64,000 bases of DNA from Arenicellales bacterium (GCA_965220725.1 OZ244840.1:2304548-2368547), one strand, 5' to 3'. Numbered from the stretch's first letter, positions 1-49,757 are shown. A program made the numbers and translations. The notes: generated by a model from the sequence alone, not told the origin.

Positions 1-3000
1 ATCTTCGCTGCCCGGATTGCGATGGCAGTCGATTCCGCGCTGAAATCTGCGATGTTCGGATCAAGCCTGCAGGGGACGGCAATGGCGCAGCTGCCAAGTC
101 GATTGTCCAGATTCTCGATATGACTGTTGCCGAGGCGATAGTGTTTTTCTCTGACAGCAACAAGATCATCAATGCGCTGTCGCCACTGGTTGACGTGGGC
201 TTGGACTACCTCAAGCTTGGCCAGCCCATTCCAACGCTGAGCGGGGGTGAGGCACAGCGGCTCAAGCTGGCGGCGCATGTCGCAAAAAGCGGTCAACGCA
301 AGCGAAATCAGGGTCACACACTGTTTCTGTTTGATGAGCCGACCACGGGCTTGCACTTCACGGATGTCTCGAAACTGGTCAGTTCACTTGGAAAACTGAT
401 CGAGGGCGGAAACTCGGTGATTGTCATCGAGCACAATCTGGATCTGATCTCGTGCGCTGACTGGGTTATTGACTTGGGACCTGAAGGTGGCGACCAGGGC
501 GGTGAGGTGATCGCCATCGGCGCGCCGGGGGAACTTTCAAAACGAGGGAAGACGCCGACAGAAGTGGCGCTGAAAGATCACTTCGAGCGCCGAACCAGTC
601 AGGCTGATATCCCGTCTCTGGATTTTGAGCGGGTTGAGAGTCCAATCGACATGATTACGATTCGCAATGCCCGGGAGCACAATCTCAAGGACATCTCCCT
701 AAGCATTCCCTATAACGCCATGACGGTGATCACCGGGCTCAGTGGCAGTGGGAAGAGTACCGTTGCTTTTGACATTCTGTTCTCGGAAGGGCAGAAGCGA
801 TACCTGGAAACCATCAATGCCTATGCACGACAGTTTGTTCAGCCTTCGACGCGCGCTGATTTCGACGCGGTCATCGGAATTCCCCCGACCGTGGCGGTCG
901 AGCAGCGCATCAGTCGCGGCGGGCGGCGCAGTACGGTTGCAACACTGACCGAGATCTACCACTTCATCCGACTGCTGTTTGTTCGTTTCGGCACCCAGTA
1001 CTGCCCGGATTGCAATGTTGCGGTCACTGCCCAGTCTGTGGAATCGATCATCAAGCAGATTGTCGAGCAGCACGCGTCGCAGCCGGTCAGTATCTTCGCC
1101 CCGCTGGTTGTTGCCAGGAAAGGTTATTACACCGATCTTGCGAATTGGGCCAGCAGGAAGGGTGTTTCACAGCTGCTGGTCGACGGTGAGTTGCTGCCGA
1201 CTGACCCGTGGCCGCGTTTGGATCGATATCGCGAACACGATATTGACATGCCGATCGCGTCGCTGACTGTGAACCGCTCCTGCAGAAGCGAACTGGAAGC
1301 GGCCATTGCTGGTGCACTCGAGATCAGTCAGGGACATTTTCGTATTGCGGTTGGTGAGTCCCAAGGACATTTCGAATCGCTGACGAGCTATTCCACGACG
1401 CGATCGTGTCCCCGCTGTGAGCGGTCGTTCGATGAGTTGGATCCAAGGCTTTTTTCCTACAATTCAAAGCAGGGTTGGTGTTTGTCCTGCCTGGGTACCG
1501 GGTTGGACACTGCAAACCACGATGAGGATGAGATTGACTCGACCGATAACGGTGTTGAGGCGCTGTGCGGTTCCTGCCAGGGCAAGCGCCTGAATCCGGT
1601 GGCGCTGGCTGTGAGATTCAAGGGCATGACCGTCGACCAGCTGGGCAGTCTTTCCATTTCGGCAGCCCGCAACTCCCTGTTGAATGTGAAACTCTCTGAA
1701 CGGGAGAAGGTTGCCGCCAGGGATATTCTGTCCGAACTCAACGCCCGGTTGAACTTTCTGGAATCGGTTGGACTCTCCTATCTTGCGCTCAACCGCTCCG
1801 CCCCGACACTGAGCGGTGGTGAGGCGCAACGCATCAGATTGGCGGCGCAACTTGGGTCGAGTCTGTGCGGTGCGTGTTATGTCCTTGATGAACCCACAAT
1901 CGGTCTGCATTCCCGGGACAACAGGCGATTGCTGTCGGCATTGCAAACACTTCGCAAGAAAGGCAATACGATAGTTGTTGTCGAACATGATGAGGAAACC
2001 ATCACTGCAGCGGATCATGTTGTGGACCTGGGGCCGGGTGGAGGCCTTCGCGGTGGTGAGGTAGTGGCTGCCGGAACCGTGTCCGAAATCAGGCGGAACG
2101 CAAGGTCGATCACCGGACAGATGCTCAGTCAGCCCATTCTGCATCCGATGACGCGACGCCGAAGCCCACCGAACCGTTCCGTGGCGGTCGAGATCATTGG
2201 TGCGGTCAAGAACAATCTAAGGAACGTCAAGGTCAGCCTGCCGTTGAATTCTCTGATCTGTGTGACCGGCGTCAGTGGCAGCGGCAAGAGCACACTGGTG
2301 CGGGATATCCTGTACACCAATCTCCGTAGTGCAGTCTCGCAAAAACGCGATGGTGCGGATACCACCGTCTGGGAGGGATGCAGTGAACTGCTGGGATGCG
2401 GCAAGGTGGACCGTGTTCTTGAAGTGGATCAGACACCGATTGGAAAGACACCGCGATCATGTCCGGCGACGTATGTGAATGTCTGGCAAACCATCAGGAA
2501 TCTGTTCGCTGAAACAACCGAGGCGAGGCTGCGCGGTTATGACGCCAGCCGGTTTTCCTTTAATGTGGAAGGCGGTCGATGTGACGCCTGCGGTGGTCAG
2601 GGCATCAGGCGTATTGAAATGAACTTCCTGCCCGATGTCCGGGTCCGATGCGAGAACTGCAATGGAGACCGGTTCAATCTGGAGACTCTTGCGGTTCGTT
2701 ACCGCAATCGGTCAATTGCAGATGTGTTACATATGAGCATGGAGGAGGCCTTGGAATTCTTTGGAAACATCCCCTCGCTCAAGCGTGTCTTCAAGTTCAT
2801 CGTTGAGGTAGGACTCGGTTTTCTCACACTCGGACAGCAAAGTCCCACACTGAGCGGGGGCGAGGCCCAGCGAATCAAACTGGTGTCGGAACTGTCCAAG
2901 GCACTACCCAGGGATACGGGAATGGGGGCGGATGCGGGTCCGGAGCGGACCAAAACCCTCTACATCCTGGATGAGCCGACAGTGGGACTACACACAGCCG

Positions 3001-3230
3001 ATGTGGAAAAACTGATCACCGTCATTCACGCATTGGTGGATGCCGGCAACACCGTGGTGGTCGTTGAGCACAACCTTGACATTGTTGCCGAATCCGACTG
3101 GATCATTGATCTGGGTCCGGAGGGCGGTGAGTTTGGCGGACGGGTTGTGACCCAGGGCCGACTGTCGCGCATTCTCAAGTCAAAGCGGTCGCATACCGCC
3201 GCCGCATTGAGAGACAAGCTGGGACGGTGA
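1..3230 (+). CDS. UvrA-family double ABC ATPase, 5'-truncated by the window edge. The C-terminal part of one UvrA-like unit is fused in frame to a complete second UvrA-like unit. It looks like a class II/III-type paralog with no UvrB-binding domain evident.
   Basis: Frame 3 is open from nt 3 (LRCPDCDGSRFRAE zinc module) into ORF 120..3230. There are three LSGGEAQR signatures, Walker A GLSGSGKST and GVSGSGKST, Walker B LFLFDEPT, YVLDEPT and YILDEPT, and several CxxC pairs. A fresh UvrA N-terminus (ITIRNAREHNLKDISLSIPYNAMTVITGLSGSGKS) begins about 180 aa into the listed ORF. Confidence 0.9.
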   Translation, partial: LRCPDCDGSRFRAEICDVRIKPAGDGNGAAAKSIVQILDMTVAEAIVFFSDSNKIINALSPLVDVGLDYLKLGQPIPTLSGGEAQRLKLAAHVAKSGQRKRNQGHTLFLFDEPTTGLHFTDVSKLVSSLGKLIEGGNSVIVIEHNLDLISCADWVIDLGPEGGDQGGEVIAIGAPGELSKRGKTPTEVALKDHFERRTSQADIPSLDFERVESPIDMITIRNAREHNLKDISLSIPYNAMTVITGLSGSGKSTVAFDILFSEGQKRYLETINAYARQFVQPSTRADFDAVIGIPPTVAVEQRISRGGRRSTVATLTEIYHFIRLLFVRFGTQYCPDCNVAVTAQSVESIIKQIVEQHASQPVSIFAPLVVARKGYYTDLANWASRKGVSQLLVDGELLPTDPWPRLDRYREHDIDMPIASLTVNRSCRSELEAAIAGALEISQGHFRIAVGESQGHFESLTSYSTTRSCPRCERSFDELDPRLFSYNSKQGWCLSCLGTGLDTANHDEDEIDSTDNGVEALCGSCQGKRLNPVALAVRFKGMTVDQLGSLSISAARNSLLNVKLSEREKVAARDILSELNARLNFLESVGLSYLALNRSAPTLSGGEAQRIRLAAQLGSSLCGACYVLDEPTIGLHSRDNRRLLSALQTLRKKGNTIVVVEHDEETITAADHVVDLGPGGGLRGGEVVAAGTVSEIRRNARSITGQMLSQPILHPMTRRRSPPNRSVAVEIIGAVKNNLRNVKVSLPLNSLICVTGVSGSGKSTLVRDILYTNLRSAVSQKRDGADTTVWEGCSELLGCGKVDRVLEVDQTPIGKTPRSCPATYVNVWQTIRNLFAETTEARLRGYDASRFSFNVEGGRCDACGGQGIRRIEMNFLPDVRVRCENCNGDRFNLETLAVRYRNRSIADVLHMSMEEALEFFGNIPSLKRVFKFIVEVGLGFLTLGQQSPTLSGGEAQRIKLVSELSKALPRDTGMGADAGPERTKTLYILDEPTVGLHTADVEKLITVIHALVDAGNTVVVVEHNLDIVAESDWIIDLGPEGGEFGGRVVTQGRLSRILKSKRSHTAAALRDKLGR

Positions 3231-3334: not shown

Positions 3335-4006
3335 CTAGAGATTTCGCCTCAGGTCGTGCTGTCGCTGCGAAATGTAATTCTTCATGGCAATCTCAGCACG
3401 ATCCGGATCCCGTTGCGCAATCGCCTCAGCAACATCGCGTGTCATCATCTCATGGGCATCCGCAATCGAATGCCAGGTTCCGATCTTGACTGAAAGATAA
3501 AACCAAAGCCTCAGGTGGAGATTGAAGATTTTTGGAATGGTCTCGGCAATGAACGAGTTGCCACAGGCATGGCAAAGCACCCGATAGAACTCTCGGTCAT
3601 GGTGAACATACGAATCAACATCATTGTCCTTGATGGCCTGAACCAGCGAGCCGTGAATCCGCATCAGGTCCTCGGCCTGTGCGGGTGTTGCCCGCGTTGC
3701 AGCCAGACGGCAGGCGTAACCGTCAATCAGGCCCCTGAATTCGTAGATTTCCTGCACATTGGTATAGGTGATTTCGGATACAAACATGCCCCGATTCAGT
3801 CGGTGTGTCACCAAGCCCTCAATCGCCAATCGCTGCAGTGCCTCGCGGATGGGGGTTCTGCCAATGCCCAGCTCATCCATCAGCGACTTCTCCGCCAGCA
3901 CTGACCCAGGCGGCAACTCGAGCCTGGTAATCCGCATGACCAGCTCTTCGTAGGCCTTGTCAGCGAGCGATACCGGAGATGCTTTCTTCTCAGCGTTCAT
4001 ATTCAC
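3335..4006 (-). CDS. GntR-family (FadR/FCD-type) transcriptional regulator, the last gene of the corrinoid methyltransferase operon.
   Basis: N-terminal wHTH (LAEKSLMDELGIGRTPIREALQRLAIEGLV) plus a helical C-terminal domain. The GTG at 4006 overlaps the upstream stop (GTGA). An alternative ATG lies at 4000. Confidence 0.85.
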   Translation of the reverse strand: MNMNAEKKASPVSLADKAYEELVMRITRLELPPGSVLAEKSLMDELGIGRTPIREALQRLAIEGLVTHRLNRGMFVSEITYTNVQEIYEFRGLIDGYACRLAATRATPAQAEDLMRIHGSLVQAIKDNDVDSYVHHDREFYRVLCHACGNSFIAETIPKIFNLHLRLWFYLSVKIGTWHSIADAHEMMTRDVAEAIAQRDPDRAEIAMKNYISQRQHDLRRNL

Positions 4007-5004
4007 TCGTTAGCAGCGGCTATGATTCGACCAAATTTCGTTTCCAGCAATCGGGCGTCAAGATCCTCTCCGATCACGACCAAGCGGTAGTGGTCTCTGG
4101 TCTCGGACTCCTCAATCTGAAGATTGCCTGTCGCATACTGAATCAGCACGGGTTTGCCATCCAACAGCATATAACCTTTCATTCGCCAAATCCTGTCAGG
4201 CAGACTGTCACAGGTATTCCTGAACTCCGGCTCGGAAAATTCACTATGTGGTTGCAGCACCAGTGAGTCCATGATTTCGTGTGCATGTTCGTGCGAATGA
4301 TCATGCGAATGATGGTGAGCATGATCGTGTCCATTTCCCGGCGATGAGTCTGCATGATCTGCGATCAATTGAGAGGACAGATTGGAAAATATCAAACTTG
4401 ATTCGATATCGCAATGATCAGCAAATCTGACTTCGGCAACGTCGTTCAATTGCCTGACCTGCCGGGTAACGCTCTTCAACGTTTCGTCCTGGGTCACGTC
4501 AACCTTGTTCAGTATCACAATGTCGGAATTGATGACCTGTGACTCATAGAACTCCCCAAGCATTGTGCGGATTTTCTCGAAATTTGATGCGTCGACCACG
4601 GTCACAACCGGAGCGACATCGAACAGATCGCGAACTTCGGGCTCCTCAAAGTCATCCAGCATATCATCCGGGTCGGCGACGCCGGTCGCCTCGACAATGA
4701 TTCGCTTGGCGCCATTCTCATTTATGAGTTCCTCAATGGCGCTGAGCAATGAGCCTCTCAGTGTGCAGCAGATGCAGCCGGACACCAGTTCAATGGTGTC
4801 AATTGACTTGCCCTTGATGATGTCGCCATCAACACCAACCGCACCGAATTCGTTGACAATGACCGCGGTCGGAATTTCAGGATCTGCGGTTTGCAGGAGA
4901 TTTCTGACGAGAGTGGTTTTCCCAGCGCCTAGAAATCCGAATAACAGGTGAATTCGAGGAAGATTACTCACTGACTTACCCGGGGAGGTGATGGAAGATT
5001 TCAT
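4003..5004 (-). CDS. COG0523/CobW-family G3E GTPase metallochaperone with a His-rich insert.
   Basis: P-loop GFLGAGKTTL, GCICC metal motif, and a His-rich run HDHAHHHSHDHSHEHAHE. I chose the ATG at 5004 (MKSSITSPG...) because the longer ORF to 5145 would overlap the upstream gene. Confidence 0.85.
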   Translation of the reverse strand: MKSSITSPGKSVSNLPRIHLLFGFLGAGKTTLVRNLLQTADPEIPTAVIVNEFGAVGVDGDIIKGKSIDTIELVSGCICCTLRGSLLSAIEELINENGAKRIIVEATGVADPDDMLDDFEEPEVRDLFDVAPVVTVVDASNFEKIRTMLGEFYESQVINSDIVILNKVDVTQDETLKSVTRQVRQLNDVAEVRFADHCDIESSLIFSNLSSQLIADHADSSPGNGHDHAHHHSHDHSHEHAHEIMDSLVLQPHSEFSEPEFRNTCDSLPDRIWRMKGYMLLDGKPVLIQYATGNLQIEESETRDHYRLVVIGEDLDARLLETKFGRIIAAANE

Positions 5005-5008
5005 TTGA

Positions 5009-6946
5009 TTATACCGCTTGTTTAGTCTTGTGCATTCTCCGCTTGCGTGCGCTTGACTTTGACGGTGAGGGAAATGGCGATCCGGAAAACGCCATTGAAT
5101 CCACAAAAATATCCTGAAAATCCGCTCTTGCGGCGAGTGCCACATGTTCGATCTGTCCGGTTATTTCTGAAGCCTTGTGACGCTCGGTTTCGGAAAGCAG
5201 CGCCATCTGTGCGCCAAGCAGTGCGGCATTTCCGACGTAGGAAATTCTTTCGTGTTCCAGATTCGGCAGCAGTCGGATGGTCTTTGCACTTTCGATGTTG
5301 ATATAGTTTCCGAACCCACCACACAGCATCAGCTCCTCAATCTTGTCATCAGACAGTTCCATGACGGATTGAAGCATTCGGATGCCCGAGTAAATGGCAC
5401 TTTTCGCCAGTTGCAGCTGCCGCACATCGGCCTGGGTTACCGAGATGTTCTGGTTTCGTCCTGCGTCTTCCTCCCAGATCAGAACAAACTCTGCCGCGCC
5501 GGTGCTGCTTCGGGTCAGCCGTTCACGGATTTTCTCAGGCAGCACCTCCAGCTCGCGCTTACGCATGTTGCCGTTGCTGTCCATGACGCTGGAATCAATC
5601 ATGTTGGCTGCCGCATCGATCAGACCTGAGCCGCAAATCCCGATTGCCGGAACGTTTCCGATGACCGAACACTCAAAGTCCTCGTCTGCCTCAACTTTCT
5701 CAACCGCGCCGAGCGCCCCGCGCATGCCGTCCCTGATTTGTGCGCCTTCAAGTGCCGGTCCCGCAGGGGCTGAGCAGGCGGTGAGACGGTCACGCGAACC
5801 CATCACCACCTCGCCATTGGTGCCGATATCCACCAGCGCCCTGATTTCCTCACTTTCGTGAATCCGCGTCGACAGGATGCAGCCGACGGTATCAGCTCCG
5901 ACAAAGCCTGCGATGATCGGCAGCAGGCACACCTGCGCGTTGGCGGCCGCCTTGAGTGGCAGTTCGGTTGCCGGCAGCACGATGTTGTCCCGAACCACCG
6001 GCGCATAGGGGGCAAGGCCGACGTAGGACACATCAATACCGAGGAAGATATGGTGCATGCAGGTATTGCCGACTACGACAATCTTGTAGACATGTCGTGG
6101 ATCGATGCCGGCTTCTTGGCTGCATTGGCGGATGTAGTTGTTGACCTGGTTGAGGACCTTTGCGCGCAGTGTCGCCAGTTTCTTGTCATCGAACTGGGCA
6201 TAGGCAATCCGCGACATAAGGTCACCGCCATAGACAGACTGTGCGTTGACGCCGCCGGCGGAGGCCAGCTGCTCGCCGGTCTGCAGGTCCAACAGCGTAC
6301 CGACCACGCTGGTTGTTCCGATATCGAAAGCCATGCCGTAGACGTGTTCGGTGGTATCGCCAGCCTCAACATCAATAATTGTGCCATTGAAGGTGGTGAC
6401 GGTGATCTCACCGCCCTTGCTTCGGAGCACTTGTGGAAGGTCTCGCATGACATGCAGCGGAACCGCCTCGTCTGACAGTTCAGACATGACAGACAGGATT
6501 TCCTCCACGTCGGAGGTTTGATGATGCTCCTCGACCGGGGCTTTCGCCTTGACAACATGCTTTGTCACGCCACAATCAAGGTGCAGGTGGGAACTGTCGC
6601 CAGCTCCGTCTGCAGATGCCAGTATCTGGTGACCCTCTTCGGCTTTGGGCGGCATCGGGAGAACAATGGTGTCGCCGAGCATCTTGGTCTGGCAGGAAAG
6701 CCGAAAGCCTTCGTGCACTTCGTCATGGCCGAGCTGCACGGTGTCCTGCACCGTTGGTGGAGGTGTGTCACCCTTGAGGATCTTGACCCGGCAACTTCTG
6801 CACCGCCCCCGGGAACCGCAGGTGGCATCAATCTGGATGCCGGCGGCATGGGCGGCGTCGAGGATGGTTACATCCCGGTCAACACGTACCGTGCGTTGCG
6901 TATCATTTTCAGCACTGGGGAAAGTGACTGAGATCTTGTCGAGCAT
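5009..6946 (-). CDS. RACo/RamA-like corrinoid reductive activase: an N-terminal plant-type 2Fe-2S ferredoxin fused to an ASKHA ATPase domain.
   Basis: The 2Fe-2S motif is ATCGSRGRCRSCRV. The ASKHA phosphate-1-like motif is MAFDIGTTSVVGTLLDLQTGE. I chose the ATG at 6946 (MLDKISVTF), 1 nt after the upstream stop. Confidence 0.8.
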   Translation of the reverse strand: MLDKISVTFPSAENDTQRTVRVDRDVTILDAAHAAGIQIDATCGSRGRCRSCRVKILKGDTPPPTVQDTVQLGHDEVHEGFRLSCQTKMLGDTIVLPMPPKAEEGHQILASADGAGDSSHLHLDCGVTKHVVKAKAPVEEHHQTSDVEEILSVMSELSDEAVPLHVMRDLPQVLRSKGGEITVTTFNGTIIDVEAGDTTEHVYGMAFDIGTTSVVGTLLDLQTGEQLASAGGVNAQSVYGGDLMSRIAYAQFDDKKLATLRAKVLNQVNNYIRQCSQEAGIDPRHVYKIVVVGNTCMHHIFLGIDVSYVGLAPYAPVVRDNIVLPATELPLKAAANAQVCLLPIIAGFVGADTVGCILSTRIHESEEIRALVDIGTNGEVVMGSRDRLTACSAPAGPALEGAQIRDGMRGALGAVEKVEADEDFECSVIGNVPAIGICGSGLIDAAANMIDSSVMDSNGNMRKRELEVLPEKIRERLTRSSTGAAEFVLIWEEDAGRNQNISVTQADVRQLQLAKSAIYSGIRMLQSVMELSDDKIEELMLCGGFGNYINIESAKTIRLLPNLEHERISYVGNAALLGAQMALLSETERHKASEITGQIEHVALAARADFQDIFVDSMAFSGSPFPSPSKSSARKRRMHKTKQAV

Positions 6947-6947
6947 G

Positions 6948-7667
6948 TCAACTCCACGCTGCCCGCGGCTCTTCCACCAGTCTGAGTGCCAGCCGTACGG
7001 CATCAACTGCATCCTTGCCCCAACCATCGGCTCCGCATTCGTCCGCCCATTCCTGTGTTGTCGGCGCACCGCCGATCAGGATCTTCACCTTGTCGCGATC
7101 GCCGGCATTCTGAAACTCCTCGATCGTCACCTTCTGGTAGTACACGGTAGTCGAGAGCAAAGCCGAAAATCCGACCAGGTCGGCGTTCTCCTCGCGGGCG
7201 GTCTGTATGAATTTATCCGGATGCACGTCTGTTCCCAGGTTGATGACCCGGAAGCCTGCGTTTTCGAGCATGATGGTTACGATCGATTGTCCGATGTCAT
7301 GCATGTCACCGAGCACGGTTCCAATCACGAACGTACCGACGGGTTTTTCCGCCATGGCTGCCAGCAAGGGGCGGATCAGGGCGAGCCCCGCCTTCATGGC
7401 CCGGGCGGTGATCAGCATTTCCGGGATGAAAATGACCTGGGCGCTGAATCGGTCAGCCTGCAGGTTGAATCCCGGGAACAGTCCGTCATCGAGAATCACT
7501 CTCGGATCAATATCCGCATCAATCGCCTGCTGAACACGGGCATCGGTGTAGACGTGGTCACCGTTTTCCACTGCATCCCAGAGTGTTTCCCATTCCCAAT
7601 TTTCGGGTGCGCGTCCTTCCCATCCCTCGGGAATAACCAGGACCGGATCTTCAATTTCTTCAAACAT
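6948..7667 (-). CDS. Corrinoid (cobalamin)-binding protein: B12-binding cap plus Rossmann-like B12 domain.
   Basis: DxHxxG motif in GTVLGDMHDIGQSIV, followed by LGTDV and SALLSTT. This is typical of MtaC/MtbC/MetH B12 domains. Confidence 0.85.
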   Translation of the reverse strand: MFEEIEDPVLVIPEGWEGRAPENWEWETLWDAVENGDHVYTDARVQQAIDADIDPRVILDDGLFPGFNLQADRFSAQVIFIPEMLITARAMKAGLALIRPLLAAMAEKPVGTFVIGTVLGDMHDIGQSIVTIMLENAGFRVINLGTDVHPDKFIQTAREENADLVGFSALLSTTVYYQKVTIEEFQNAGDRDKVKILIGGAPTTQEWADECGADGWGKDAVDAVRLALRLVEEPRAAWS

Positions 7668-7681
7668 GTCTCAATCGTCAA

Positions 7682-8851
7682 CTAATTCAATGGATATTTG
7701 CCGTAGGTGCCGAAGTCGCGTTGCGCTTCAAGCATCGTGAAGATGTTCTGGATCGGGACGTCGGCGAGAATGTAATGGGATGGCGAAAAGATATAGCCAC
7801 CGCCGGTGGCCAGGTTCTTCATAACCTCACACACACCGTTTCGCACGTCCTCCACCTGTCCCCTGGGGAGCAGACGCTGGACATCGAAACCTCCGATGAA
7901 CGCAATGTCATCACCGTACTTCTGCTTGAGTTCCTTTTGATGCTTGTTGCCGCCTGTTGGCTGCATCAGACCGGACAGGTCAACACCGAGTTCAATCATG
8001 TCCCCGATGATGGGGGAATAATCACCACAGGAGTGGAGCTTGATGTAGATGTCCGGGTTGGACTTGCGGAACTCCTTGAACATATAGTCAAACCGGGGCT
8101 TGCCTAATTCCCGCCACTGTTCAGGTGAGATCATCATTGACTGCTGTGCACCGACATCATCACCAACCCGGATCATGTCGACACCGAGATCGATGACATT
8201 CTTGCCCAGCTGGGTATAGTATTCCGTCAGTCCGTCCAGCACTCCCTTGATCAACTCAGGCTGGTCGAACAGCATCAGGAAGAAGTTCTGGGTACCGACG
8301 ATATGGGCGTAGGCCGCCTCGATCAGTGTTGACGACAAGTCAACAATGATGAAATAATCCTTCTGATACTCCTCAAGCAGTCTCTTGATGGGTTCTAGCA
8401 GTTCCGGATCAGCCGGGTCGGGCCAGGTGTAATTTTTAAGTTCCTCCATCGAGGTGATCGGGTGATGGTTGGGGAAGTTTTCCGGCACAACCTTTGCCGG
8501 CCCCCAGAACTCCTGGGTTTTCGCAAACACCTCGTGTTCCTCTTCGGTCCGGCCCTTGAGTCCGCTCTTTCCATAGCCGACGCCAAAATGGTTGAACCAG
8601 GTCTCGCCGATTGCGATTGGGCGATGGGAGAACTGGGCGTTGATACCGATCTGATAGATGATGGCATCATTGCCGAGTCGCAATTCCAGTTCGGGATTGT
8701 GTTTCATGCCGGTACCGGTTTTGGTGATGCCGTAAACCCGTGCAATCTTTTCCTTGGCTTCACTTTTCATTCGGTACAGCAGTGGTACCCGGTCAACCTT
8801 TTCATGTCGAATAGCCCGGGCAAAGCGATCGCGTGGCAGTAATTCCTTCAT
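7682..8851 (-). CDS. URO-D (uroporphyrinogen decarboxylase)/MtaA-CmuA-family methyltransferase, the putative substrate-side methyltransferase.
   Basis: Full-length URO-D-like pattern: RFARAIRHEKVDRVPL at the N-terminus, DDVGAQQSMMISPEQW, KLHSCGD, and GGYIFSPSH near the C-terminus. It carries an H-x-C ... C arrangement (LHSCGD, with a Cys in NGVCEV 66 residues later). Confidence 0.75.
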   Translation of the reverse strand: MKELLPRDRFARAIRHEKVDRVPLLYRMKSEAKEKIARVYGITKTGTGMKHNPELELRLGNDAIIYQIGINAQFSHRPIAIGETWFNHFGVGYGKSGLKGRTEEEHEVFAKTQEFWGPAKVVPENFPNHHPITSMEELKNYTWPDPADPELLEPIKRLLEEYQKDYFIIVDLSSTLIEAAYAHIVGTQNFFLMLFDQPELIKGVLDGLTEYYTQLGKNVIDLGVDMIRVGDDVGAQQSMMISPEQWRELGKPRFDYMFKEFRKSNPDIYIKLHSCGDYSPIIGDMIELGVDLSGLMQPTGGNKHQKELKQKYGDDIAFIGGFDVQRLLPRGQVEDVRNGVCEVMKNLATGGGYIFSPSHYILADVPIQNIFTMLEAQRDFGTYGKYPLN

Positions 8852-8938
8852 CTTTGTTCGCCTCTCGTTAAATTGGTTCGTGGTGTATTCGGTTCATCTG
8901 TCAAATATAGTTGATTTGGTCGTAAGTTGGCCAACGGA

Positions 8939-9940
8939 CTATTTCGACACCCGTCTGGCTGGCTTGTTCAGCGCACGGATGTACCTGAGATACTTGACGG
9001 AATACTCATCCCGTGCGGTCAGGGAATTTGCCGCAAACAGGAAATCGTTGAACGGTTTGACCTGATTCATGATGGGATCGATCATCAACGAGTCACAGCC
9101 GGCGAGAATCGCCAGCGTCACAAAGGCATGATTGAGAATCTTGCGCTGCGGCAATCCGAATGATACGTTGCTGTGACCGCCGAAGATGTGAACAGCCGGG
9201 TAGCGCGTCCTGAGTTCGCGTACTGCATCAAGGTAGTGATTGCCAAAGTCCGGTCCTGCGCCAATGGGAAAGACCAGCGGATCCAGGAACCGGTCTTCCA
9301 TGGGAATGCCGCCGGCATCCATCATCTGCATGCACTGCTCGAGATTGTTGACACGCTCTTCGGCATCCTGTGGCATGCCGCGGTTGCCGCTGGCATTGGC
9401 GAACAGGATTGCATTCTTTTCGCGTGCCATGTCCACCAGCACCTGGCGGCCGTCTTCGAGATTGAATGAGTTGATCGCCGGGCGGCTGATCGTGCCGTCA
9501 TGGGCTTCCAGTCCGGCATAGATGGTGTTGGAATCGGAGGAATCAATCGACACCACCGACGAGGTGATGGACTGGGCGGTTCTGACCAGCCACTTCATCC
9601 ATTCATAGCGCTCCTCGGGGTAGACTGACATCTCATCCACACAAAGATCAATGATGTGTGCGCCATTGGCTTCCTGCGACTTGATCGCCCAGTTGATGTA
9701 TTCCATGTCCTTTTGACGGCAGGCTTCCGCGATATGCGGAATGGCAAAAATCTTCTGCTCGTTGGGATCTTCGGGTATGGATGGGGTGACGTCGAGCCGC
9801 CCGGTTGTACCGTCGAGTTTGGCATAGGCAATGAACCACTTGTCGTCCTCGCGGACAACACGCGGACTCGAGGCCTTGATTCTCCTCGTGGCATTGAAGT
9901 TTTCGCCAATGATGACGAGACCGTCATTTTTCACTTTCAT
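8939..9940 (-). CDS. Pterin-binding (MeTr/MetH pterin domain, DHPS-like) methyltetrahydrofolate:corrinoid methyltransferase.
   Basis: The N-terminus LVIIGENFNATRRIK resembles the IGERxNxTG start of pterin-binding TIM barrels. Its size and its position next to a corrinoid protein fit this call. Confidence 0.7.
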   Translation of the reverse strand: MKVKNDGLVIIGENFNATRRIKASSPRVVREDDKWFIAYAKLDGTTGRLDVTPSIPEDPNEQKIFAIPHIAEACRQKDMEYINWAIKSQEANGAHIIDLCVDEMSVYPEERYEWMKWLVRTAQSITSSVVSIDSSDSNTIYAGLEAHDGTISRPAINSFNLEDGRQVLVDMAREKNAILFANASGNRGMPQDAEERVNNLEQCMQMMDAGGIPMEDRFLDPLVFPIGAGPDFGNHYLDAVRELRTRYPAVHIFGGHSNVSFGLPQRKILNHAFVTLAILAGCDSLMIDPIMNQVKPFNDFLFAANSLTARDEYSVKYLRYIRALNKPARRVSK

Positions 9941-9961
9941 GTTGGGGACTCAATGATGCGA

Positions 9962-10630
9962 TCAGGTTCTCGGGATCAGTCCGAACAGACCGGAGCGTGA
10001 CATCTTGGGGAGCATGGCTGAACTCTCCAGTAGCCTGACTGGAATCCCGGTGTCCCCGAACGAGGCGAACAATGGTTGTTGATCATGCAGTTCCCACTGT
10101 ATCTGCCGGCCTTCAACGGGATAGGAGTAACCCGGCCCCAGTCGACGGGAGATCCGGGCATTGTGCTGCGTCGCCCACTTGCGCACGATCAGCACAAATT
10201 GCTTGGTTGCATCCTCCACTCCCAGCCAGGCGGCGGACTCCAAAAACAGGGCTTCGACGAGTTTTTCCTGATCCATCCATTCTATTGTCTGCTTGTCAAT
10301 TCCCTCACCGACGGTCAGTGCGAAGACCACGACCTTTGTCGATTCACTCAAATACTGCTTGAATATCGGACTTTGCAGGAATACACCGTTTTCAAGCCTG
10401 AGTCCCATCGCGTCCACACTCTCAATGTCCACCAGTCGATAACTCACCACCGGTGCGGCATTGGCGACAAAAGCGCTGATCGCGGTCATTGCCGATTTTC
10501 GAATGACGGGCCGTACTTTATCGGGATCCTTGTATCCCTGAATTCGCAGTACCGCATCGAGTTTTGGCTCTGAAGTGTCCAAAACAATCGTTTCGGTCAC
10601 TCCGCAAACAAGACTCTTCATGTTCATCAA
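9962..10630 (-). CDS. Protein resembling the methionine synthase (MetH) activation/AdoMet-binding domain.
   Basis: The C-terminal pattern RLGPGYSYP...LFASFGDTGIPVRLLESSAMLPKMSRSGLFGL resembles the MetH activation-domain pattern (PGYP...LF...GI.LTES.AM.P..SVSG). The start is uncertain (TTG 10630, ATG 10627 or ATG 10621) and no SD is visible. Confidence 0.55.
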   Translation of the reverse strand: MMNMKSLVCGVTETIVLDTSEPKLDAVLRIQGYKDPDKVRPVIRKSAMTAISAFVANAAPVVSYRLVDIESVDAMGLRLENGVFLQSPIFKQYLSESTKVVVFALTVGEGIDKQTIEWMDQEKLVEALFLESAAWLGVEDATKQFVLIVRKWATQHNARISRRLGPGYSYPVEGRQIQWELHDQQPLFASFGDTGIPVRLLESSAMLPKMSRSGLFGLIPRT

Positions 10631-10719
10631 TATAATATATTACAAATATATCATTTAAATATTTTGAGTTACCTGAGTGAAACCGGAATCATCCGGCAGC
10701 CACCCAGCGTGTCTGATAT

Positions 10720-11610
10720 TCAGTCGCCGTCGTTCTCCAGGGGCAGTCTGGAAGCGACATAACGGTAGATACCGCCACCGATCAGCGCACCGATGATCGG
10801 TGCCAGTATGTATACGATAAACCAACCGCCGCGGGGGCCGGGAATTGCAATCCCGTCCCAGCCGGCGAAGTAGGCGATCAATCTGGGACCGAAGTCGCGG
10901 GCGGGATTCAGCCCCGCCTGGGTCAGGGGGGCGATGACTGAAATGATGGCGGCGACGCCCACACCGATGGCAACCGCCGCGCCCGCTGATTGCGGGCGTG
11001 CGTAATTACGGCCGTGGGTGACCACGGACACGATGAAGGCCAGCATTGCCGTGCCGACCAACTCTGCGACGAATCCGGTCTTGATGCTGACGATCTGGAA
11101 TGCCTCAGGCGTAGTCCCGAATATCGCCGGGTTTGGGAAATACTCGCCGTAAATCATGGCACTGAGCTGGCTGCCCTGTTCTCCGCGAACCAGTTCGTGC
11201 TGCTGTTCGAAACCCGCAATGGCGTTGGCGTACAGAAAATACAGGATCAGACCGGCAAATGCCGCACCTGCGACCTGTGCGGTCCAGTACGGAATCACTC
11301 TGCGCCAGGGAAAACCATCATACACGGCAACCACGCAGGTGATGGCGGGATTGATGTGTGCACCGGACAGCGAAGCCGCTGTGTAGATGCCCAGCGTCAC
11401 CGCGACGGACCACACCACCGCAACCTGCCACAAACCGACCTGCGCGCCGGAAATCACGGCTGCGTGCACCACGCCGATGCCAAAGAAAACCATGACAAAA
11501 GTACCGAGAAACTCACCAGTCAGGGCGTCGCGCAAGGGTGGCAGCTCGCCTTGCTGGTTTTTTGCCAATGGATGGTCCAGAAATCGAAACAGGTGCCGTG
11601 GTGATTTCAC
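10720..11610 (-). CDS. MIP-family channel (aquaporin / aquaglyceroporin-like).
   Basis: Two NPA boxes (GAHINPAIT and GLNPARDFGPR) and six hydrophobic segments. The listed ORF start (11796) overlaps the upstream metF-like gene, so I chose the in-frame GTG at 11610. A TTG at 11568 is an alternative. Confidence 0.85.
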   Translation of the reverse strand: MKSPRHLFRFLDHPLAKNQQGELPPLRDALTGEFLGTFVMVFFGIGVVHAAVISGAQVGLWQVAVVWSVAVTLGIYTAASLSGAHINPAITCVVAVYDGFPWRRVIPYWTAQVAGAAFAGLILYFLYANAIAGFEQQHELVRGEQGSQLSAMIYGEYFPNPAIFGTTPEAFQIVSIKTGFVAELVGTAMLAFIVSVVTHGRNYARPQSAGAAVAIGVGVAAIISVIAPLTQAGLNPARDFGPRLIAYFAGWDGIAIPGPRGGWFIVYILAPIIGALIGGGIYRYVASRLPLENDGD

Positions 11611-11650: not shown

Positions 11651-12535
11651 TCAGGCGGCGCTGATGTTTTGTTTGCCGATTTCGTGCACAATCCTTTGGA
11701 TCCAGTCCGCAGATTTACGCAGTCCGCCCAGCGGATAGATGTGCAACTTCTTGATTCTGGTTTCGGGGTTGCGTAATCGGTAGTCGACCAGATCATCGAG
11801 CAACCGCTGCGGATTATGGTTCATCAGCATTTTTGTGGCGTTGCGCGCCTGTTTCTTGAGGAACACCGCGGAGGCACCGATGCCACAGGCCTTTGCATGC
11901 TTGAGCAGCGTACCGACTGTGGCAACACCGGGTATGCCGATATGTAGGGGCAGGTCGATGCCCATCTGTGACAATCTTGCTTCCCAGGTGATGATGGGCT
12001 CGGCTTCAAAACAGAATTGGGTGATGATGTACATTGCGGCATCCGTGCGTTGTGCGAAGTCAAGCTTCCACCTCAACGCCGACTCGATCTGCTGATCGGA
12101 CATGTCCGGTGAGCCTTCAGGATGACCGGCAATGCCAATGGTTTGGATTCCCATTTTGTCGAACAATTCGGTTTCCAGCAACTGCATGGAGTTGTCAAAC
12201 TCACCAACCGGTTTCGGTGCGCCGCCGGCGAGTACCAGCACCTGCCTGCCGCCACAGCCATCGCGGAAACGGATCAGCGCATCCTCGAGTTTCTTGCGGT
12301 TTGGAATCTGACGGGCAACGATGTGTGGAATGGGAACGAACTGTTCGGACTTGAGGCGTTCACAGATGGTGAGTGTGTCGTCGATGGTTGATCCGGGCAG
12401 TGTGGTGACGTAGACCTGCGTGCCGGGCTCGATGATGTAGCGGTAGTCGGGAATCTTGGTCGCCGCGCCGGGTGTGGTTTCAACAGAATAGCCGTGCAGC
12501 AACTGCCGAAGTGCTGAAGAGTTCGGGTTGGACAA
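11651..12535 (-). CDS. metF: 5,10-methylenetetrahydrofolate reductase (MTHFR family).
   Basis: GHPEGSP, ITQFCFEAE and GIDLPLHIGIPG parallel E. coli MetF segments (YPEVHPE, ITQFFFD, GIDVEIIPGILP). Confidence 0.75.
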   Translation of the reverse strand: MSNPNSSALRQLLHGYSVETTPGAATKIPDYRYIIEPGTQVYVTTLPGSTIDDTLTICERLKSEQFVPIPHIVARQIPNRKKLEDALIRFRDGCGGRQVLVLAGGAPKPVGEFDNSMQLLETELFDKMGIQTIGIAGHPEGSPDMSDQQIESALRWKLDFAQRTDAAMYIITQFCFEAEPIITWEARLSQMGIDLPLHIGIPGVATVGTLLKHAKACGIGASAVFLKKQARNATKMLMNHNPQRLLDDLVDYRLRNPETRIKKLHIYPLGGLRKSADWIQRIVHEIGKQNISAA

Positions 12536-12585: not shown

Positions 12586-13119
12586 TCACGCCCATTCAAA
12601 GTAAACGACGGCGTCGTGAAAGTCGTTGATCTCGGATTCACTGGACGAGAGAATACGGAAGCCCTGCCGGGTGCCACCCGGCCATTCGTTGTCGAGCATG
12701 ATACGGTTGCCGATCCAATGCTCGGCGAACTGATGTCCGATCAGCACATAAACCATTTCTGAATTGACTGCAATGCCATTGTTCGGTCCAAGCCGGGTAT
12801 TCATTGGGCGCGGTGTCTTCCAGTCTGCTATCACCTCGCAGGTCTCGGCATCCAGTGAGTCGGTGATGACAACCCGATGGATCGGCCAGGCGTATGAGTT
12901 GCCGGATACGGTAATGGTCTGGTTGGGCAGCGAGCAGGCGACTGCGAGCAGGAATTCTCCCTGGAAACTGAACTTTTCAGAAAACGCGGCTGGCGCGGTC
13001 ACTGCCGCACAGCCGTAATGTCCGTCTGCAACGCCGTCGGTAACTTCGGGTGGCGTCCAATTCAGATTCTTCAGAGCATGCCTGTCGAACTCAGGTACTG
13101 GAAATCGTTTCGCCCACAT
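12586..13119 (-). CDS. Hypothetical protein, first gene of the hypothetical / metF / MIP unit.
   Basis: A 177-aa ORF co-directional with metF and 50 nt upstream of it. Its composition is protein-like. I recognised no family. Confidence 0.5.
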   Translation of the reverse strand: MWAKRFPVPEFDRHALKNLNWTPPEVTDGVADGHYGCAAVTAPAAFSEKFSFQGEFLLAVACSLPNQTITVSGNSYAWPIHRVVITDSLDAETCEVIADWKTPRPMNTRLGPNNGIAVNSEMVYVLIGHQFAEHWIGNRIMLDNEWPGGTRQGFRILSSSESEINDFHDAVVYFEWA

Positions 13120-13459: not shown

Positions 13460-13750
13460 ATGGCGAAGGTGACCATATTGTATTGGCAGGATATCCCGTC
13501 GGTCGTTGAGGCCCGGGATGAGCAGGGTGTTCACAAGGAACTTCTCAGTGAGCGATTTCAGGAACTGATTGATCTGGTCGCAATGAAAAAGAAGCTGGCT
13601 GGAACCGATGAATACCTGATGCAGTGGTCGAAGGGCAAGCCCTACGAGGTTGATGGAACCGCGGTGGAAGCGGCAACGGCCGTCAGGGATGAATTCGAAG
13701 CCCGGTATAAGGAAATCAGAAAGTCAGAGTTGAACAAGGCCGTCGGCTAG
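13460..13750 (+). CDS. Small conserved protein. It possibly belongs to the family annotated 'virulence factor', which is often found beside B12/pterin methyltransferase genes.
   Basis: A strong SD (AAAGGAGG) lies 7 nt before the ATG. The N-terminus VTILYWQDIPSVVEAR resembles the YWRDIPAQV start I recall for that family. I could not verify this. Confidence 0.6.
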   Translation: MAKVTILYWQDIPSVVEARDEQGVHKELLSERFQELIDLVAMKKKLAGTDEYLMQWSKGKPYEVDGTAVEAATAVRDEFEARYKEIRKSELNKAVG

Positions 13751-15129: not shown

Positions 15130-16128
15130 ATGACGAATGCGATTGAAACAGTAGTAGTATTTGGAGCAGGTGTTTCAAAGAGAATCGTGAATTTTCCCAC
15201 ATTTGATAATTTGATCCACGAATTGAAATCGGAGCGCGTGGCGACAGAGAATAAAACGCTCCGAGACTGCATATTGAGTTACGAAACGGAAAAACACAAA
15301 AACTTCGACTTATACCTAGTGAATAGCATAAATCACCTAAACGATAGCACAATAATTTCCGAATACATGGAATTAATCTCTGACAAATTCTTCACAAATT
15401 TGGAAGACTCAACCACAAGTGCAATCCTATCTAAGTCCAAATGGTTGTCGGAAACTTTACGCAGGCCAAAGAGAGTCTTAGTGACTACAAACTATGATCC
15501 GTTATTGAACATATTAGTCTATTGTGAAATGTATCAAGAATTGAAACATCGTGTCCAGACGGACGGTAGCCATCATTTTGAGTCACTCATTGAAGACTTC
15601 GAAGTTGGAAACAACGCCAAGCCTCATGAATTTGTGGATTGGTTCTTTAGTTTATTGTTACAAGAAGCATATAAGCAGGTCTGTAGTTTCCAGGACCTCA
15701 AGCAACACAATTCAATGTCTGAGCGGATTTTCTATTTGCATGGGCATTGTTACAAGCGTGAGTCAACCTACAAGTTAATCGGAGAATTTGAAACCGTCCA
15801 GAACGAGACACGAAATAGGTCTGCAACTCTGACAGGTGAAACCACGAGGCACAAAGTATATGAGAATTTGCAAAAGTTGCTCGCAACTAGTGAGATTTTT
15901 CGGGTAATTGTAGTTGGAATGAGTAAAGAAACTTGCAAGTATGTAATACAGCACGCAAATTTATCCGCAGAGAAATTAATCTATGGTTATCACGAAGATT
16001 CCTTGATTGAGGCTGATGACCGAGTAGAATTGAATAGTTATTTACAGTCTGAGTTCCAAGAAAGATTTTTGAAGATTGAAACTGATGGAAACCAGACTAT
16101 CATGGAAATGCTACGTGATGAAGAGTAA
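15130..16128 (+). CDS. Stand-alone SIR2-like (SIR2_2 type) protein in an AT-rich islet. It is a candidate NAD+-consuming defence effector.
   Basis: VVVFGAGVSKRIVNFPTFDNL (GAGxS), VLVTTNYDPLLN (TTNYD motif), IFYLHGHC (LHG) and FRVIVVGMS (a GYS-like tail). Hand counts give local G+C of about 33-37% (lines 15361 and 15601), versus about 55% in the flanking line 14101. Confidence 0.65.
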   Translation: MTNAIETVVVFGAGVSKRIVNFPTFDNLIHELKSERVATENKTLRDCILSYETEKHKNFDLYLVNSINHLNDSTIISEYMELISDKFFTNLEDSTTSAILSKSKWLSETLRRPKRVLVTTNYDPLLNILVYCEMYQELKHRVQTDGSHHFESLIEDFEVGNNAKPHEFVDWFFSLLLQEAYKQVCSFQDLKQHNSMSERIFYLHGHCYKRESTYKLIGEFETVQNETRNRSATLTGETTRHKVYENLQKLLATSEIFRVIVVGMSKETCKYVIQHANLSAEKLIYGYHEDSLIEADDRVELNSYLQSEFQERFLKIETDGNQTIMEMLRDEE

Positions 16129-43877: not shown

Positions 43878-43981
43878 AAATACTCTGATTTCGAACGCCG
43901 TAAAATTCTCCCGGTTTTCGAAATATTCTGATGTATGATTATGCGAGAATTTGAATTTTGTTCTTTCCCTTTTATCGGTAC

Positions 43982-44863: not shown

Positions 44864-44877
44864 GTGTAGTTGCCCGT

Positions 44878-45558: not shown

Positions 45559-45789
45559 TTGATCTATTTTGATTTCACTCTTGAGGTTGCGGACACTTCC
45601 ATTTCCAGAGTCCGACAAGTGATTGAACTAACCGCCACAGGTGGTGATACGTGACAACCGGAAAAAGTTTCTGAATTTTTTCTGATTTGGACTTGAATCT
45701 CATAATTCCATCCCCATATACCCTTTAAGGTTGGCCGCATTTACTGAATCAACTCGCGTCAAACACAACAATCAGAAGGAGGATTTTCC

Positions 45790-49747: not shown

Positions 49748-49757
49748 GAGAACATCA

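Follow-up and report, generated by a model that had tools for sequence, protein, structure and literature searches.

A corrinoid methyl-transfer operon linked to arsenic genes in aerobic Proteobacteria, a candidate demethylase of methylarsenicals

Which methyl compound is handled by the seven-gene operon at positions 3335-10630 of a 64,000-nucleotide stretch of DNA from an Arenicellales bacterium? This stretch is called the window below, and all coordinates are counted from its first letter. A previous examination of the same DNA, which we term the sequence-only reading, described the operon as a complete corrinoid-dependent methyl-transfer system in an aerobic-type genomic context and held that its substrate cannot be read from the sequence. 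That statement holds for the window by itself, but the comparative context gives a strong lead to arsenic. We tentatively propose, with a confidence just short of even, that the cluster encodes an oxygen-tolerant demethylase dependent on corrinoid and tetrahydrofolate (THF), whose likeliest methyl donors are methylarsonate, dimethylarsinate and possibly trimethylarsine oxide.

Methylation and demethylation govern the toxicity and mobility of arsenic in rice paddies and in the ocean. Removal of methyl groups from dimethylarsinate and methylarsonate has been measured both in soil and in bacteria of the sea (PMC6426599; bioRxiv 10.64898/2026.08.27.747368), whereas the only demethylating enzyme known, ArsI, acts on trivalent methylarsenite. 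In SAR11 marine bacteria, measured demethylation of dimethylarsinate delivers the methyl group to THF-linked one-carbon (C1) oxidation, by biochemical steps that the authors describe as little known (PMC6426599). For paddy soils, where corrinoid methyltransferases are suspected of this step, a 2026 preprint followed methanogen enzymes of the generic kind as stand-ins for the demethylation of arsenic (bioRxiv 10.64898/2026.08.27.747368). Literature searches joining URO-D/corrinoid systems with arsenite oxidase, Arenicellales, dimethylarsenate, methylarsenic or arsenobetaine returned nothing relevant. The cluster is offered as a conserved and easily recognised candidate for the missing demethylase, and as a marker for metagenomic surveys.

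The seven open reading frames of the core operon all lie on the minus strand and run in the same direction. Domains were called by profile searches with Pfam and NCBIfam models. The genes and a candidate control site are, in the order of transcription:

10632-10659, minus strand: promoter-like site TTTAAA-16-TATTAT and candidate operator (consensus scan; a pattern match only)
9962-10621, minus strand: divergent MetH activation (reactivation) domain protein (remote homologue of PF02965)
8939-9940, minus strand: pterin-binding methyltransferase, predicted methyl-corrinoid:tetrahydrofolate methyltransferase or MT-II (Pterin_bind PF00809, 66.9 bits, cutoff 25.5)
7682-8851, minus strand: URO-D/MtaA-family methyltransferase, putative substrate:corrinoid methyltransferase or MT-I (Pfam URO-D PF01208, 117.6 bits)
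6948-7667, minus strand: corrinoid (B12-binding) methyl-carrier protein (B12-binding PF02310, 94.6 bits; B12-binding_2 PF02607, 55 bits)
5009-6946, minus strand: RACo-type ATP-dependent reductive activase of the corrinoid protein (Fer2, RACo_linker, Raco_middle and RACo_C_ter, the last with 259.6 bits)
4003-5004, minus strand: COG0523 (CobW-type) GTPase (Pfam cobW, 155 bits; CobW_C, 43 bits)
3335-4000, minus strand: GntR/FCD-family transcription regulator, the last core gene (Pfam GntR, 65.9 bits; FCD, 87.2 bits)

With gene starts as called on public contigs, the intergenic gaps are 21, 87, 14, 1, 4 and 2 nucleotides, and the last becomes -4 if the GntR gene starts at GTG. The sequence-only reading had the seven co-directional genes and their gaps right, and six of its seven domain calls, including the pterin-binding one, are borne out directly by the profile matches. 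The seventh, a protein said to be like the MetH activation domain, stands as a remote homologue. As a single sequence it has no Pfam match even at E = 10, but a profile of 16 family members matches the Thermotoga maritima MetH activation-domain protein (PDB 1J6R) with E = 1.3e-10, and PF02965 is matched individually by 13 of the 16 (best E = 3.6e-5). Invariant in the family are R160, P163, G164, Y165 and the run M203-P-K-x-S-R-S-G; the resulting RxxPGY and MxPxxSxSG motifs presumably resemble the S-adenosylmethionine (AdoMet)-site motifs of E. coli MetH. On the profile matches, the first core gene is predicted to encode a genuine though divergent MetH reactivation domain, whose role would be the AdoMet-dependent re-methylation of cob(II)/(I)alamin.

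The other components show the expected signatures while commonly falling under the cutoffs of named families. In the corrinoid protein the DxHxxG motif reads GDMHDIG, the NCBIfam models pyl_corrinoid (177.5 bits) and MtgC (175.9 bits) both score under cutoff, and sequences from different classes are 74-93% identical. The pterin enzyme, 67-90% identical among related loci, reaches 195.7 bits against the methyl-THF:corrinoid methyltransferase domain model PRK07535, under its cutoff of 259. The activase combines a 2Fe-2S and an ASKHA domain, contains all four RACo Pfam domains, is called as a 645-amino-acid gene on public contigs and scores 435.6 bits against NCBIfam AcsV, under the cutoff of 800. 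The COG0523 GTPase (NCBIfam CobW 145 bits and ZigA 110 bits, both under cutoff; 39-69% identity across loci) bears a GCICC (CxCC) motif and a His-rich insert; it is a predicted metallochaperone, with zinc as the most likely metal and the URO-D enzyme as the most likely client. In most loci the GntR gene, with 50-84% identity, retains its place behind that for the COG0523 protein. AT-rich palindromes (inverted repeats at 10632-10663) overlap the promoter-like site in the 98-nucleotide gap before the first core gene, again as a pattern match only.

All parts of a three-component corrinoid system are therefore found together, namely the corrinoid protein, the pterin enzyme, a URO-D substrate-side methyltransferase and the RACo activase. 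This supports the prediction, made already in the sequence-only reading, that 3335-10630 encodes, in an aerobic host, a system of the MT-I / corrinoid protein / MT-II / activase type. The aerobic look of the surroundings is likewise real, with neighbours in the window that include ETF-QO, AhpC/peroxiredoxin, PhyH and FAD oxidases.

The unit reaches beyond the core, upstream to about 13750, through four further genes that co-occur with the core across phyla:

10720-11610, minus strand: GlpF-type aquaglyceroporin, a MIP channel (Pfam MIP, 144 bits)
11651-12535, minus strand: divergent methylene-tetrahydrofolate reductase, MTHFR (Pfam MTHFR, 43.5 bits)
12586-13119, minus strand: 177-amino-acid protein, beta-sandwich, confined to the cluster's system (no family match)
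13460-13750, plus strand (divergent): 96-amino-acid PF13769 ('Virulence_fact') protein (Pfam, 49.2 bits)

Co-occurrence was scored by tblastn over 53 species-level genome loci, and all four genes travel with the core. The channel matches E. coli GlpF (1FX8) with E = 6.5e-48, and the GlpF filter residues W48/G191/F200/R206 align to W/I/A/R; it may conduct As(OH)3 or a neutral methylarsenical. The MTHFR would oxidise methyl-THF. Pfam, NCBIfam and PDB sequence searches gave no match for the 177-amino-acid protein, which has 95 homologues, all annotated 'hypothetical'; its AlphaFold2 (AF2) model is well defined (pLDDT 93.2) and has a weak, LecB-lectin-like fold match, and in other loci its gene adjoins a Rieske ferredoxin or the arsenite oxidase genes aioBA. 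In most non-Arenicellales lineages the operon opens with the PF13769 gene, ahead of the activation-domain gene; the alignment of PF13769 proteins contains no Cys or His cluster and no metal-binding pattern.

Identical and near-identical copies of the cluster are present on long contigs of Arenicellales metagenome-assembled genomes (MAGs). Other carriers are Acidiferrobacterales, 'Muproteobacteria', other Gammaproteobacteria, Rhodospirillales, Hyphomicrobiales and Burkholderiales (Ramlibacter and Limnohabitans MAGs), and 80 more metagenome contigs from marine, freshwater and soil sources bear it. All genome matches are MAGs, with no cultured carrier among them, so that the corrinoid system, widespread as it is, has to date been seen in MAGs only. 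The URO-D protein is its best-conserved member, with 72-94% identity across classes, whereas the GTPase, MTHFR and accessory proteins are only 35-70% identical. Clustering at 50% reduces the URO-D family to a single representative; its next relatives are 42-48% identical and align only over residues 125-389, and its database name is at most 'uroporphyrinogen decarboxylase family protein'. The cluster is probably horizontally mobile. An analysis of gene-neighbourhood conservation, which the sequence-only reading had recommended, thus finds the cluster conserved across alpha-, beta- and gammaproteobacterial MAGs, and it also reveals a link to arsenic genes.

This link was seen on contigs whose URO-D proteins are 80-84% identical to that of the window. 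(L-numbers below label homologous loci on public genome and metagenome contigs.) There, a string of nine genes on one strand diverges from the core operon (L058 type), in the order PrmA-like methyltransferase, 177-amino-acid family gene, Rieske ferredoxin, MTHFR, small Rieske protein, Rieske_3/molybdopterin protein, pentapeptide-repeat protein, MIP channel and second COG0523 gene. The molybdoenzyme scores 1016.8 bits against the AioA model TIGR02693 (cutoff 359) and matches AioA crystal structures with E of about 1e-236, and the small Rieske protein scores 147 bits against the AioB model TIGR02694 (cutoff 95.65). On these scores the pair is a genuine arsenite oxidase, AioBA. Iodate reductase IdrAB, considered as an identity for the Rieske_3 molybdoenzyme, was ruled out by the 1017 bits on the AioA equivalog and the matches to AioA structures. 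In L058 the gaps along MTHFR-aioB-aioA-pentapeptide-MIP are 102, 12, -4 and 39 nucleotides. The MIP gene that closes such aioB-aioA-pentapeptide-MIP strings is orthologous to that of the window (63-67% identity), and the window bears the equivalent string, 177-amino-acid gene-MTHFR-MIP, without aioBA.

Alpha-, Beta- and Gammaproteobacteria all have strings with aioBA, and the gene order takes at least five forms, the L058 and L084 types among them. In one, MTHFR-aioB-aioA-pentapeptide-MIP lies directly downstream of the GntR gene on the same strand (L040, L096, L110, L118); in another, the 177-amino-acid gene heads aioB-aioA-pentapeptide-MIP while MTHFR heads the core operon (L087, L090); in a third, a ferredoxin reductase and a 2Fe-2S ferredoxin precede MTHFR-aioBA (L041, L042, L128). 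Because the linkage to aioBA is retained despite these rearrangements, functional coupling appears a better explanation than inherited synteny.

Among the 39 non-Arenicellales loci that have at least 8 kb upstream, 21 carry aioA or aioB and 23 carry some arsenic marker. A marker is also present in 19 of 32 loci having at least 6 kb on both sides and in none of 19 having less than 3 kb of flank, as expected for a signal that would depend on flank length. Other arsenic genes recur as well. ArsD (PF06953, E = 4e-28; NCBIfam 85 bits, cutoff 90) is encoded directly after GntR in L043, L045, L109, L122, L130, L144 and L146, which come from Limnohabitans, Burkholderiaceae and several metagenome contigs, and ArsR-ArsD-ArsA follows GntR in L042, L035/L064 and L135. 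Five Arenicellales loci hold three extra genes between MTHFR and the activation-domain gene: arsR (ArsR/SmtB, 58.6 bits, cutoff 55), a 134-amino-acid ArsI/CadI-type enzyme with vicinal cysteines (110.8 bits, under the cutoff of 116) and a second MIP channel. Since ArsI is the known C-As lyase for methylarsenite, this arrangement ties the cluster to methylated arsenic and not to arsenic in general.

Several further genes recur around the cluster in these relatives. A cytoplasmic 705-amino-acid Mo-bisPGD enzyme without a signal peptide is encoded with a DmsB-like 4Fe-4S subunit beside the cluster (L058 17581-20275; also L035/L064, L037, L044 and L061); it is 77-82% identical between classes and scores 409 bits against PhsA and 187 bits against ArrA, both under cutoff. 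A PrmA-like S-adenosylmethionine methyltransferase of 217-225 amino acids diverges from the PF13769 gene (L058 8083-8754, with orthologues in L028, L035, L037, L039, L043, L051 and L061), and a Cys-rich 83-amino-acid protein with two CxxC pairs often follows GntR in other loci; both are absent from the window. In Acidiferrobacterales and 'Muproteobacteria' loci, an ArsR-type helix-turn-helix fused to a methyltransferase of the same cofactor type, with weak ArsM similarity (60 bits; L065 5054-6034), adjoins a BhmT-type homocysteine methyltransferase and the cluster MTHFR.

What, then, does the best-conserved protein do? Its placement was judged by NCBIfam scores, the PDB and the nearest unnamed representatives as proxies. 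An identity as HemE, the uroporphyrinogen decarboxylase, was rejected: the score against the hemE model TIGR01464 is 25.7 bits, far under the cutoff of 302.95, and the neighbours are corrinoid and pterin genes, not haem genes. The protein also scores under the cutoff of every characterised methyltransferase model, including TIGR01463 mtaA_cmuA (78.7 against 235.4 bits) and MtaA-like PRK06252 (84 against 244 bits). MtaA (4AY7/4AY8) is its only PDB sequence match, with E = 1e-10 and about 20% identity, and is also the top Foldseek match of its AF2 model (pLDDT 72.7; 4AY7, E = 2.4e-12, TM 0.62/0.70), followed by HemE structures.

The sequence-only reading had pointed out an H-x-C...C arrangement in this enzyme, and from its likeness to the zinc site of MtaA and MtsA had suggested a methyl-thiol or methyl-thioether substrate. 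The LHSCGD motif and a cysteine 66 residues on (C341) are indeed present. However, many homologues have L, Y or F in place of C341, and C275, within HSCGD, is the only invariant cysteine of the family. When the residues that we take to be the three zinc ligands of MtaA (His-x-Cys and a distal Cys) are aligned, they correspond to H273, C275 and H359, all invariant. The H-x-C-x(n)-C motif of the TIGR01463 type is thus absent, its third-ligand position being His359 and not Cys, and a His-Cys-His site is the likely candidate for metal binding. Because H-x-C...H is common to a far wider URO-D subclade, this site points to no particular substrate, thiols included, and the zinc-based inference of a thiol or thioether is unsupported. 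The family is set apart by insertions at residues ~44-53 and ~100-127 that are rich in invariant residues. Its nearest outgroups, at 42-48% identity, include a URO-D-corrinoid fusion, an architecture also seen in CmuA and MtsD/F/H. Some loci contain a second, distant URO-D-family gene of 25-29% identity (L133 10862-12753; L043 16093-17535), which in L133 comes with its own corrinoid protein just after GntR and suggests a second methyl donor or step.

The relationship to MtaA raises the question of direction, since MtaA, the closest characterised relative, moves a methyl group from methyl-Co(III) to a zinc-bound nucleophile. The cluster might accordingly run in reverse as an AdoMet-independent arsenite methylase for detoxification, in which methyl-THF made by the MTHFR would pass its methyl through the pterin enzyme and the corrinoid protein to the MtaA-like enzyme and on to As(III). 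Methylcobalamin, and methanogen extracts as well, methylate arsenite; the MTHFR, pterin enzyme and activation domain are MetH-type parts for moving methyl from methyl-THF to an acceptor; and the channel could let in As(OH)3. Such an enzyme would nevertheless compete for As(III) with AioBA from the same operon, its product would be undone by the ArsI that lies inside the cluster of some Arenicellales, and as a multi-protein system it would be costly beside ArsM, a widespread single protein. The URO-D enzyme has only one invariant cysteine, whereas As(III) sites of the ArsM type rely on several. The C1 genes that accompany the cluster also point the other way: MTHFR is found everywhere, FTHFS in L045, L127, L133, L144 and L146, FTCD in the soil subclade represented by L133, and glycerate 2-kinase in Arenicellales. 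Because these genes of C1 oxidation or assimilation travel with the cluster, the demethylating direction is favoured, and we regard arsenite methylation as distinctly unlikely.

A second use of the same parts would be as a split cobalamin-dependent methionine synthase, an alternative that the sequence-only reading had raised. Here the URO-D/MtaA-like enzyme, in place of a PF02574 module, would methylate homocysteine or another thiol, and the cluster might stay beside arsenic genes as a stand-in for MetH or MetE that tolerates arsenite. Three of the four MetH modules (pterin, B12 and activation) are present, with an MTHFR for substrate supply, and MtaA-type enzymes are thiol methylases. Roseobacters have an established split MetH with a RamA-type activase (PMC12478193). 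The fourth, homocysteine module, S-methyl_trans (PF02574), is absent from the 64-kb window. Other lineages have it: a BhmT/MtgE-type gene is encoded close to the cluster in several of them and within it in the soil subclade. The order of the latter operon (L133 type) is activation domain, MTHFR with a C-terminal domain, pterin enzyme, S-methyl_trans, URO-D, corrinoid protein, RACo, COG0523 and GntR, followed by the second URO-D/corrinoid pair, FTHFS and FTCD. Because this operon holds both MetH acceptor modules, pterin-binding and S-methyl_trans, the URO-D enzyme is best placed on the donor side. Even beside an in-operon PF02574 gene the URO-D gene is still present and the most conserved, and so is no substitute for that module; the methionine synthase alternative leaves this conservation unexplained. 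Moreover, a dedicated channel, FTHFS/FTCD and a catabolic-type repressor would be unexpected for a biosynthetic enzyme, and the ArsI linkage is specific to organoarsenicals and not to general arsenic stress. This alternative is an improbable rival.

The observations on which the demethylase proposal builds are the domain identities, the conservation of the cluster and its linkage to arsenic genes, and from these we infer the substrate, the direction of transfer, the metal, the channel solute and every catalytic step. The URO-D-family enzyme would bind the arsenical at its His-Cys-His site, probably with zinc loaded by the COG0523 GTPase, and would offer a methyl group to the Co(I) corrinoid protein. 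Co(I) would take CH3+ to give methyl-Co(III), and the arsenic, having gained two electrons, would depart as As(III) or methyl-As(III). The pterin-binding enzyme would then move the methyl group to THF, and the divergent MTHFR would oxidise methyl-THF into C1 metabolism, although in some lineages a BhmT/MetH-type homocysteine methyltransferase could divert the methyl group to methionine. As(OH)3 could exit via the GlpF-type channel and, in many relatives, be oxidised by periplasmic AioBA, with ArsD/ArsA handling cytosolic As(III).

With dimethylarsinate as the donor, the methyl-As(III) intermediate would have to be finished by ArsI or re-oxidised. Conceivable candidates for re-oxidation would be the 177-amino-acid protein with its Rieske or ferredoxin reductase-ferredoxin partners and the 705-amino-acid molybdoenzyme with the DmsB-like subunit; alternatively, the ferredoxins may merely feed RACo. 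Corrinoid oxidised to Co(II) would be repaired by RACo, through ATP-driven reduction, and by the MetH-activation-domain protein, through methylation by AdoMet. This combination suggests a two-tier repair of oxidised cobalamin, which would be sensible in air. The operon as a whole would be controlled by GntR.

Methylcobalamin methylates arsenite non-enzymatically, and transfer from As(V)-methyl to Co(I), as the reverse of that reaction, is judged plausible only. Several points weigh against the proposal. We know of no enzymatic precedent for methyl transfer from As(V) to Co(I). Stepwise demethylation of dimethylarsinate needs re-oxidation or ArsI, and most loci lack an assigned component for it. 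Methylarsenic in the environment is scarce as a carbon source, the predicted metal site is generic to a large URO-D subclade, the AF2 model is poor in the family-specific insertions (pLDDT < 50 at residues 70-126), and the regulator is of the GntR and not the ArsR type. What argues for this substrate and direction is gene neighbourhood only. Here, too, there are gaps: aioBA, arsD, arsI and arsR are all absent from the 64-kb window, where the sole arsenic-type part is the MIP orthologue, and an arsenic island is seen in 23 of the 39 well-flanked loci of other lineages and in the five Arenicellales loci described above. About 40% of well-flanked loci, and the soil subclade in its available flanks, have no arsenic gene. 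Finally, the loci share ancestry and so do not count as independent samples, and joint transfer with arsenic islands could make the linkage look stronger than it is.

Such gaps could mean that the cluster is the same demethylase for an ordinary small methyl donor, such as dimethylsulfide, methanethiol, a halomethane, methanol or a methyl ether, with the arsenic genes as fellow riders on mobile islands. Like the window, most Arenicellales loci are without aio or ars genes, and so are large-genome gammaproteobacterial loci (L029-L034, L049, L066) and the soil subclade; the nearest outgroup examined, a URO-D-corrinoid fusion, stands in a non-arsenic context; the GntR regulator is of a catabolic type; and the very high identity across classes indicates horizontal transfer. 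Hitch-hiking leaves unexplained, however, why aioBA should lie between the cluster's own MTHFR or 177-amino-acid gene and its own MIP gene in at least five arrangements, why arsR-arsI-MIP was inserted within the Arenicellales cluster, and why ArsD repeatedly comes directly after GntR. A dedicated aquaglyceroporin also has no obvious use for dimethylsulfide, halomethanes or methanol. We therefore consider an ordinary donor unlikely, if still worth bearing in mind.

Returning to methylarsenicals as the donors, we think it a real possibility, though on the lesser side of even, that the URO-D family is the missing aerobic demethylase for pentavalent methylarsenicals and the first corrinoid enzyme to act on a metalloid-methyl bond, with methyl retained on THF and As(III) passed to arsenite oxidase. 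If so, a single substrate would feed both C1 oxidation and arsenite-based respiration, and the family would serve as a marker gene by which demethylation of arsenic could be traced in the ocean, in soils and in symbionts of sponges. Should arsenic prove to be the wrong substrate, the combination of RACo (ATP) and MetH-type (AdoMet) repair would still be relevant to how cells sustain Co(I) chemistry in air.

Other features of the window lie apart from the cluster. The window opens inside a very long plus-strand gene, whose 3' part lies at positions 1-3230. The product is a UvrA-like double ABC ATPase (UvrA_inter, UvrA_DNA-bind) that measures 1853 amino acids on public contigs, and the gene is syntenic with the cluster in many Arenicellales and not elsewhere. 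A 332-amino-acid gene at 15130-16128 (plus strand), with a weak SIR2_2 match (E = 0.0015) and in a stretch of low GC (0.48), is found on L001 and missing from the near-identical L002, suggesting a strain-variable insertion and possibly a defence gene. The lowest-GC part, 40090-46728 (0.46-0.49), has the look of an acquired segment and carries a pair of Metallophos and 870-amino-acid SMC-like genes (SbcCD-like), PhyH, DUF1028 and Transposase_31. At 48656-51050 (plus strand), an Old-Yellow-Enzyme-type flavoprotein gene is followed by a DmmA-like_N/NAD_binding/Fer2 reductase gene, with TctCBA transporter genes just downstream; this may be another module for methyl-group or amine oxidation. A 275-amino-acid S-adenosylmethionine methyltransferase at 38995-39822 (minus strand) has arsenite methyltransferase as its best NCBIfam match and was not called ArsM, at 77 bits against a cutoff of 263.

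How does the cluster compare with systems already known? Its architecture is of a known corrinoid demethylase kind, and its aerobic context, less unusual than the sequence-only reading had claimed, is by itself not novel given CmuAB and MtgBCD. The same list of parts (a URO-D-superfamily MT-I, a small DxHxxG corrinoid protein, a pterin-binding MT-II and a 2Fe-2S/ASKHA activase) makes up the three-component O-demethylases of anaerobes, namely Moorella MtvABC and the Odm/Vdm systems of Acetobacterium and Desulfitobacterium. The cluster differs from these in its hosts, which are aerobic Proteobacteria, in its additional MetH activation domain, COG0523 GTPase, MTHFR of its own, aquaglyceroporin, 177-amino-acid protein and PF13769 protein, and in its context, which shows no aromatic catabolism and is linked instead to aioBA, arsD, arsA and arsI.

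With the MtaA/MtbA/MtsA/CmuA enzymes (TIGR01463; M. mazei MtaA, 4AY7) the URO-D protein shares a zinc-site H-x-C that aligns exactly, LHSCGD against LHICGN. It is only about 20% identical to MtaA, however, has the invariant His in place of the third-ligand Cys as well as the family-specific insertions, and is paired with a THF methyltransferase and not with coenzyme M chemistry. The CmuAB chloromethane pathway of aerobic methylotrophs likewise uses a URO-D-type MT-I to methylate a corrinoid at the expense of a small C1 compound and a pterin enzyme to pass the methyl group to THF, with metF in the cluster. CmuA is a methyltransferase-corrinoid fusion, whereas the present cluster has separate genes (7682-8851 and 6948-7667); purU and folD were not found in the window, and aioBA, ArsD and the MIP channel have no halide logic. 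If our proposal holds, the nearest counterpart in net outcome would be ArsI, to our knowledge the only known methylarsenite demethylase, which likewise demethylates arsenic in aerobes; an ArsI/CadI-type gene even sits within the cluster of one Arenicellales subclade. ArsI does its work as one Fe(II) dioxygenase, which takes trivalent methylarsenite and oxidises the carbon away, while the cluster would use pentavalent species as substrates and keep the methyl group, bound to THF.

Type 1 mlp clusters, for which a role with methyl-sulfur or methyl-selenium compounds has been proposed, encode two or three Mlp paralogues, Mlp2 and Mlp3 among them, lack a THF methyltransferase and are restricted to obligate anaerobes (PMC10418091). 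This identity was rejected for the present cluster, which contains a single URO-D gene together with a pterin enzyme and is carried by aerobes. A further aerobic precedent is found in MtgBCDE of Ruegeria pomeroyi, whose single corrinoid protein and single pterin enzyme work in betaine demethylation as well as in methionine synthesis, with methyl-THF oxidised through a second metF (PMC12478193). The operon of the soil subclade follows a similar logic. The two systems have in common the aerobic setting, the separate corrinoid protein, the pterin enzyme, a RamA/RACo-type activase, a second metF and an optional BhmT-type module (PMC12478193). In Ruegeria, however, MT-I is of the MttB family and not the URO-D family, and reactivation involves DUF1638 (PMC12478193), whereas the cluster appears to use a PF02965-like protein. 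The Ruegeria genes are scattered and serve osmolyte catabolism (PMC12478193), while those described here form one operon in an arsenic context.

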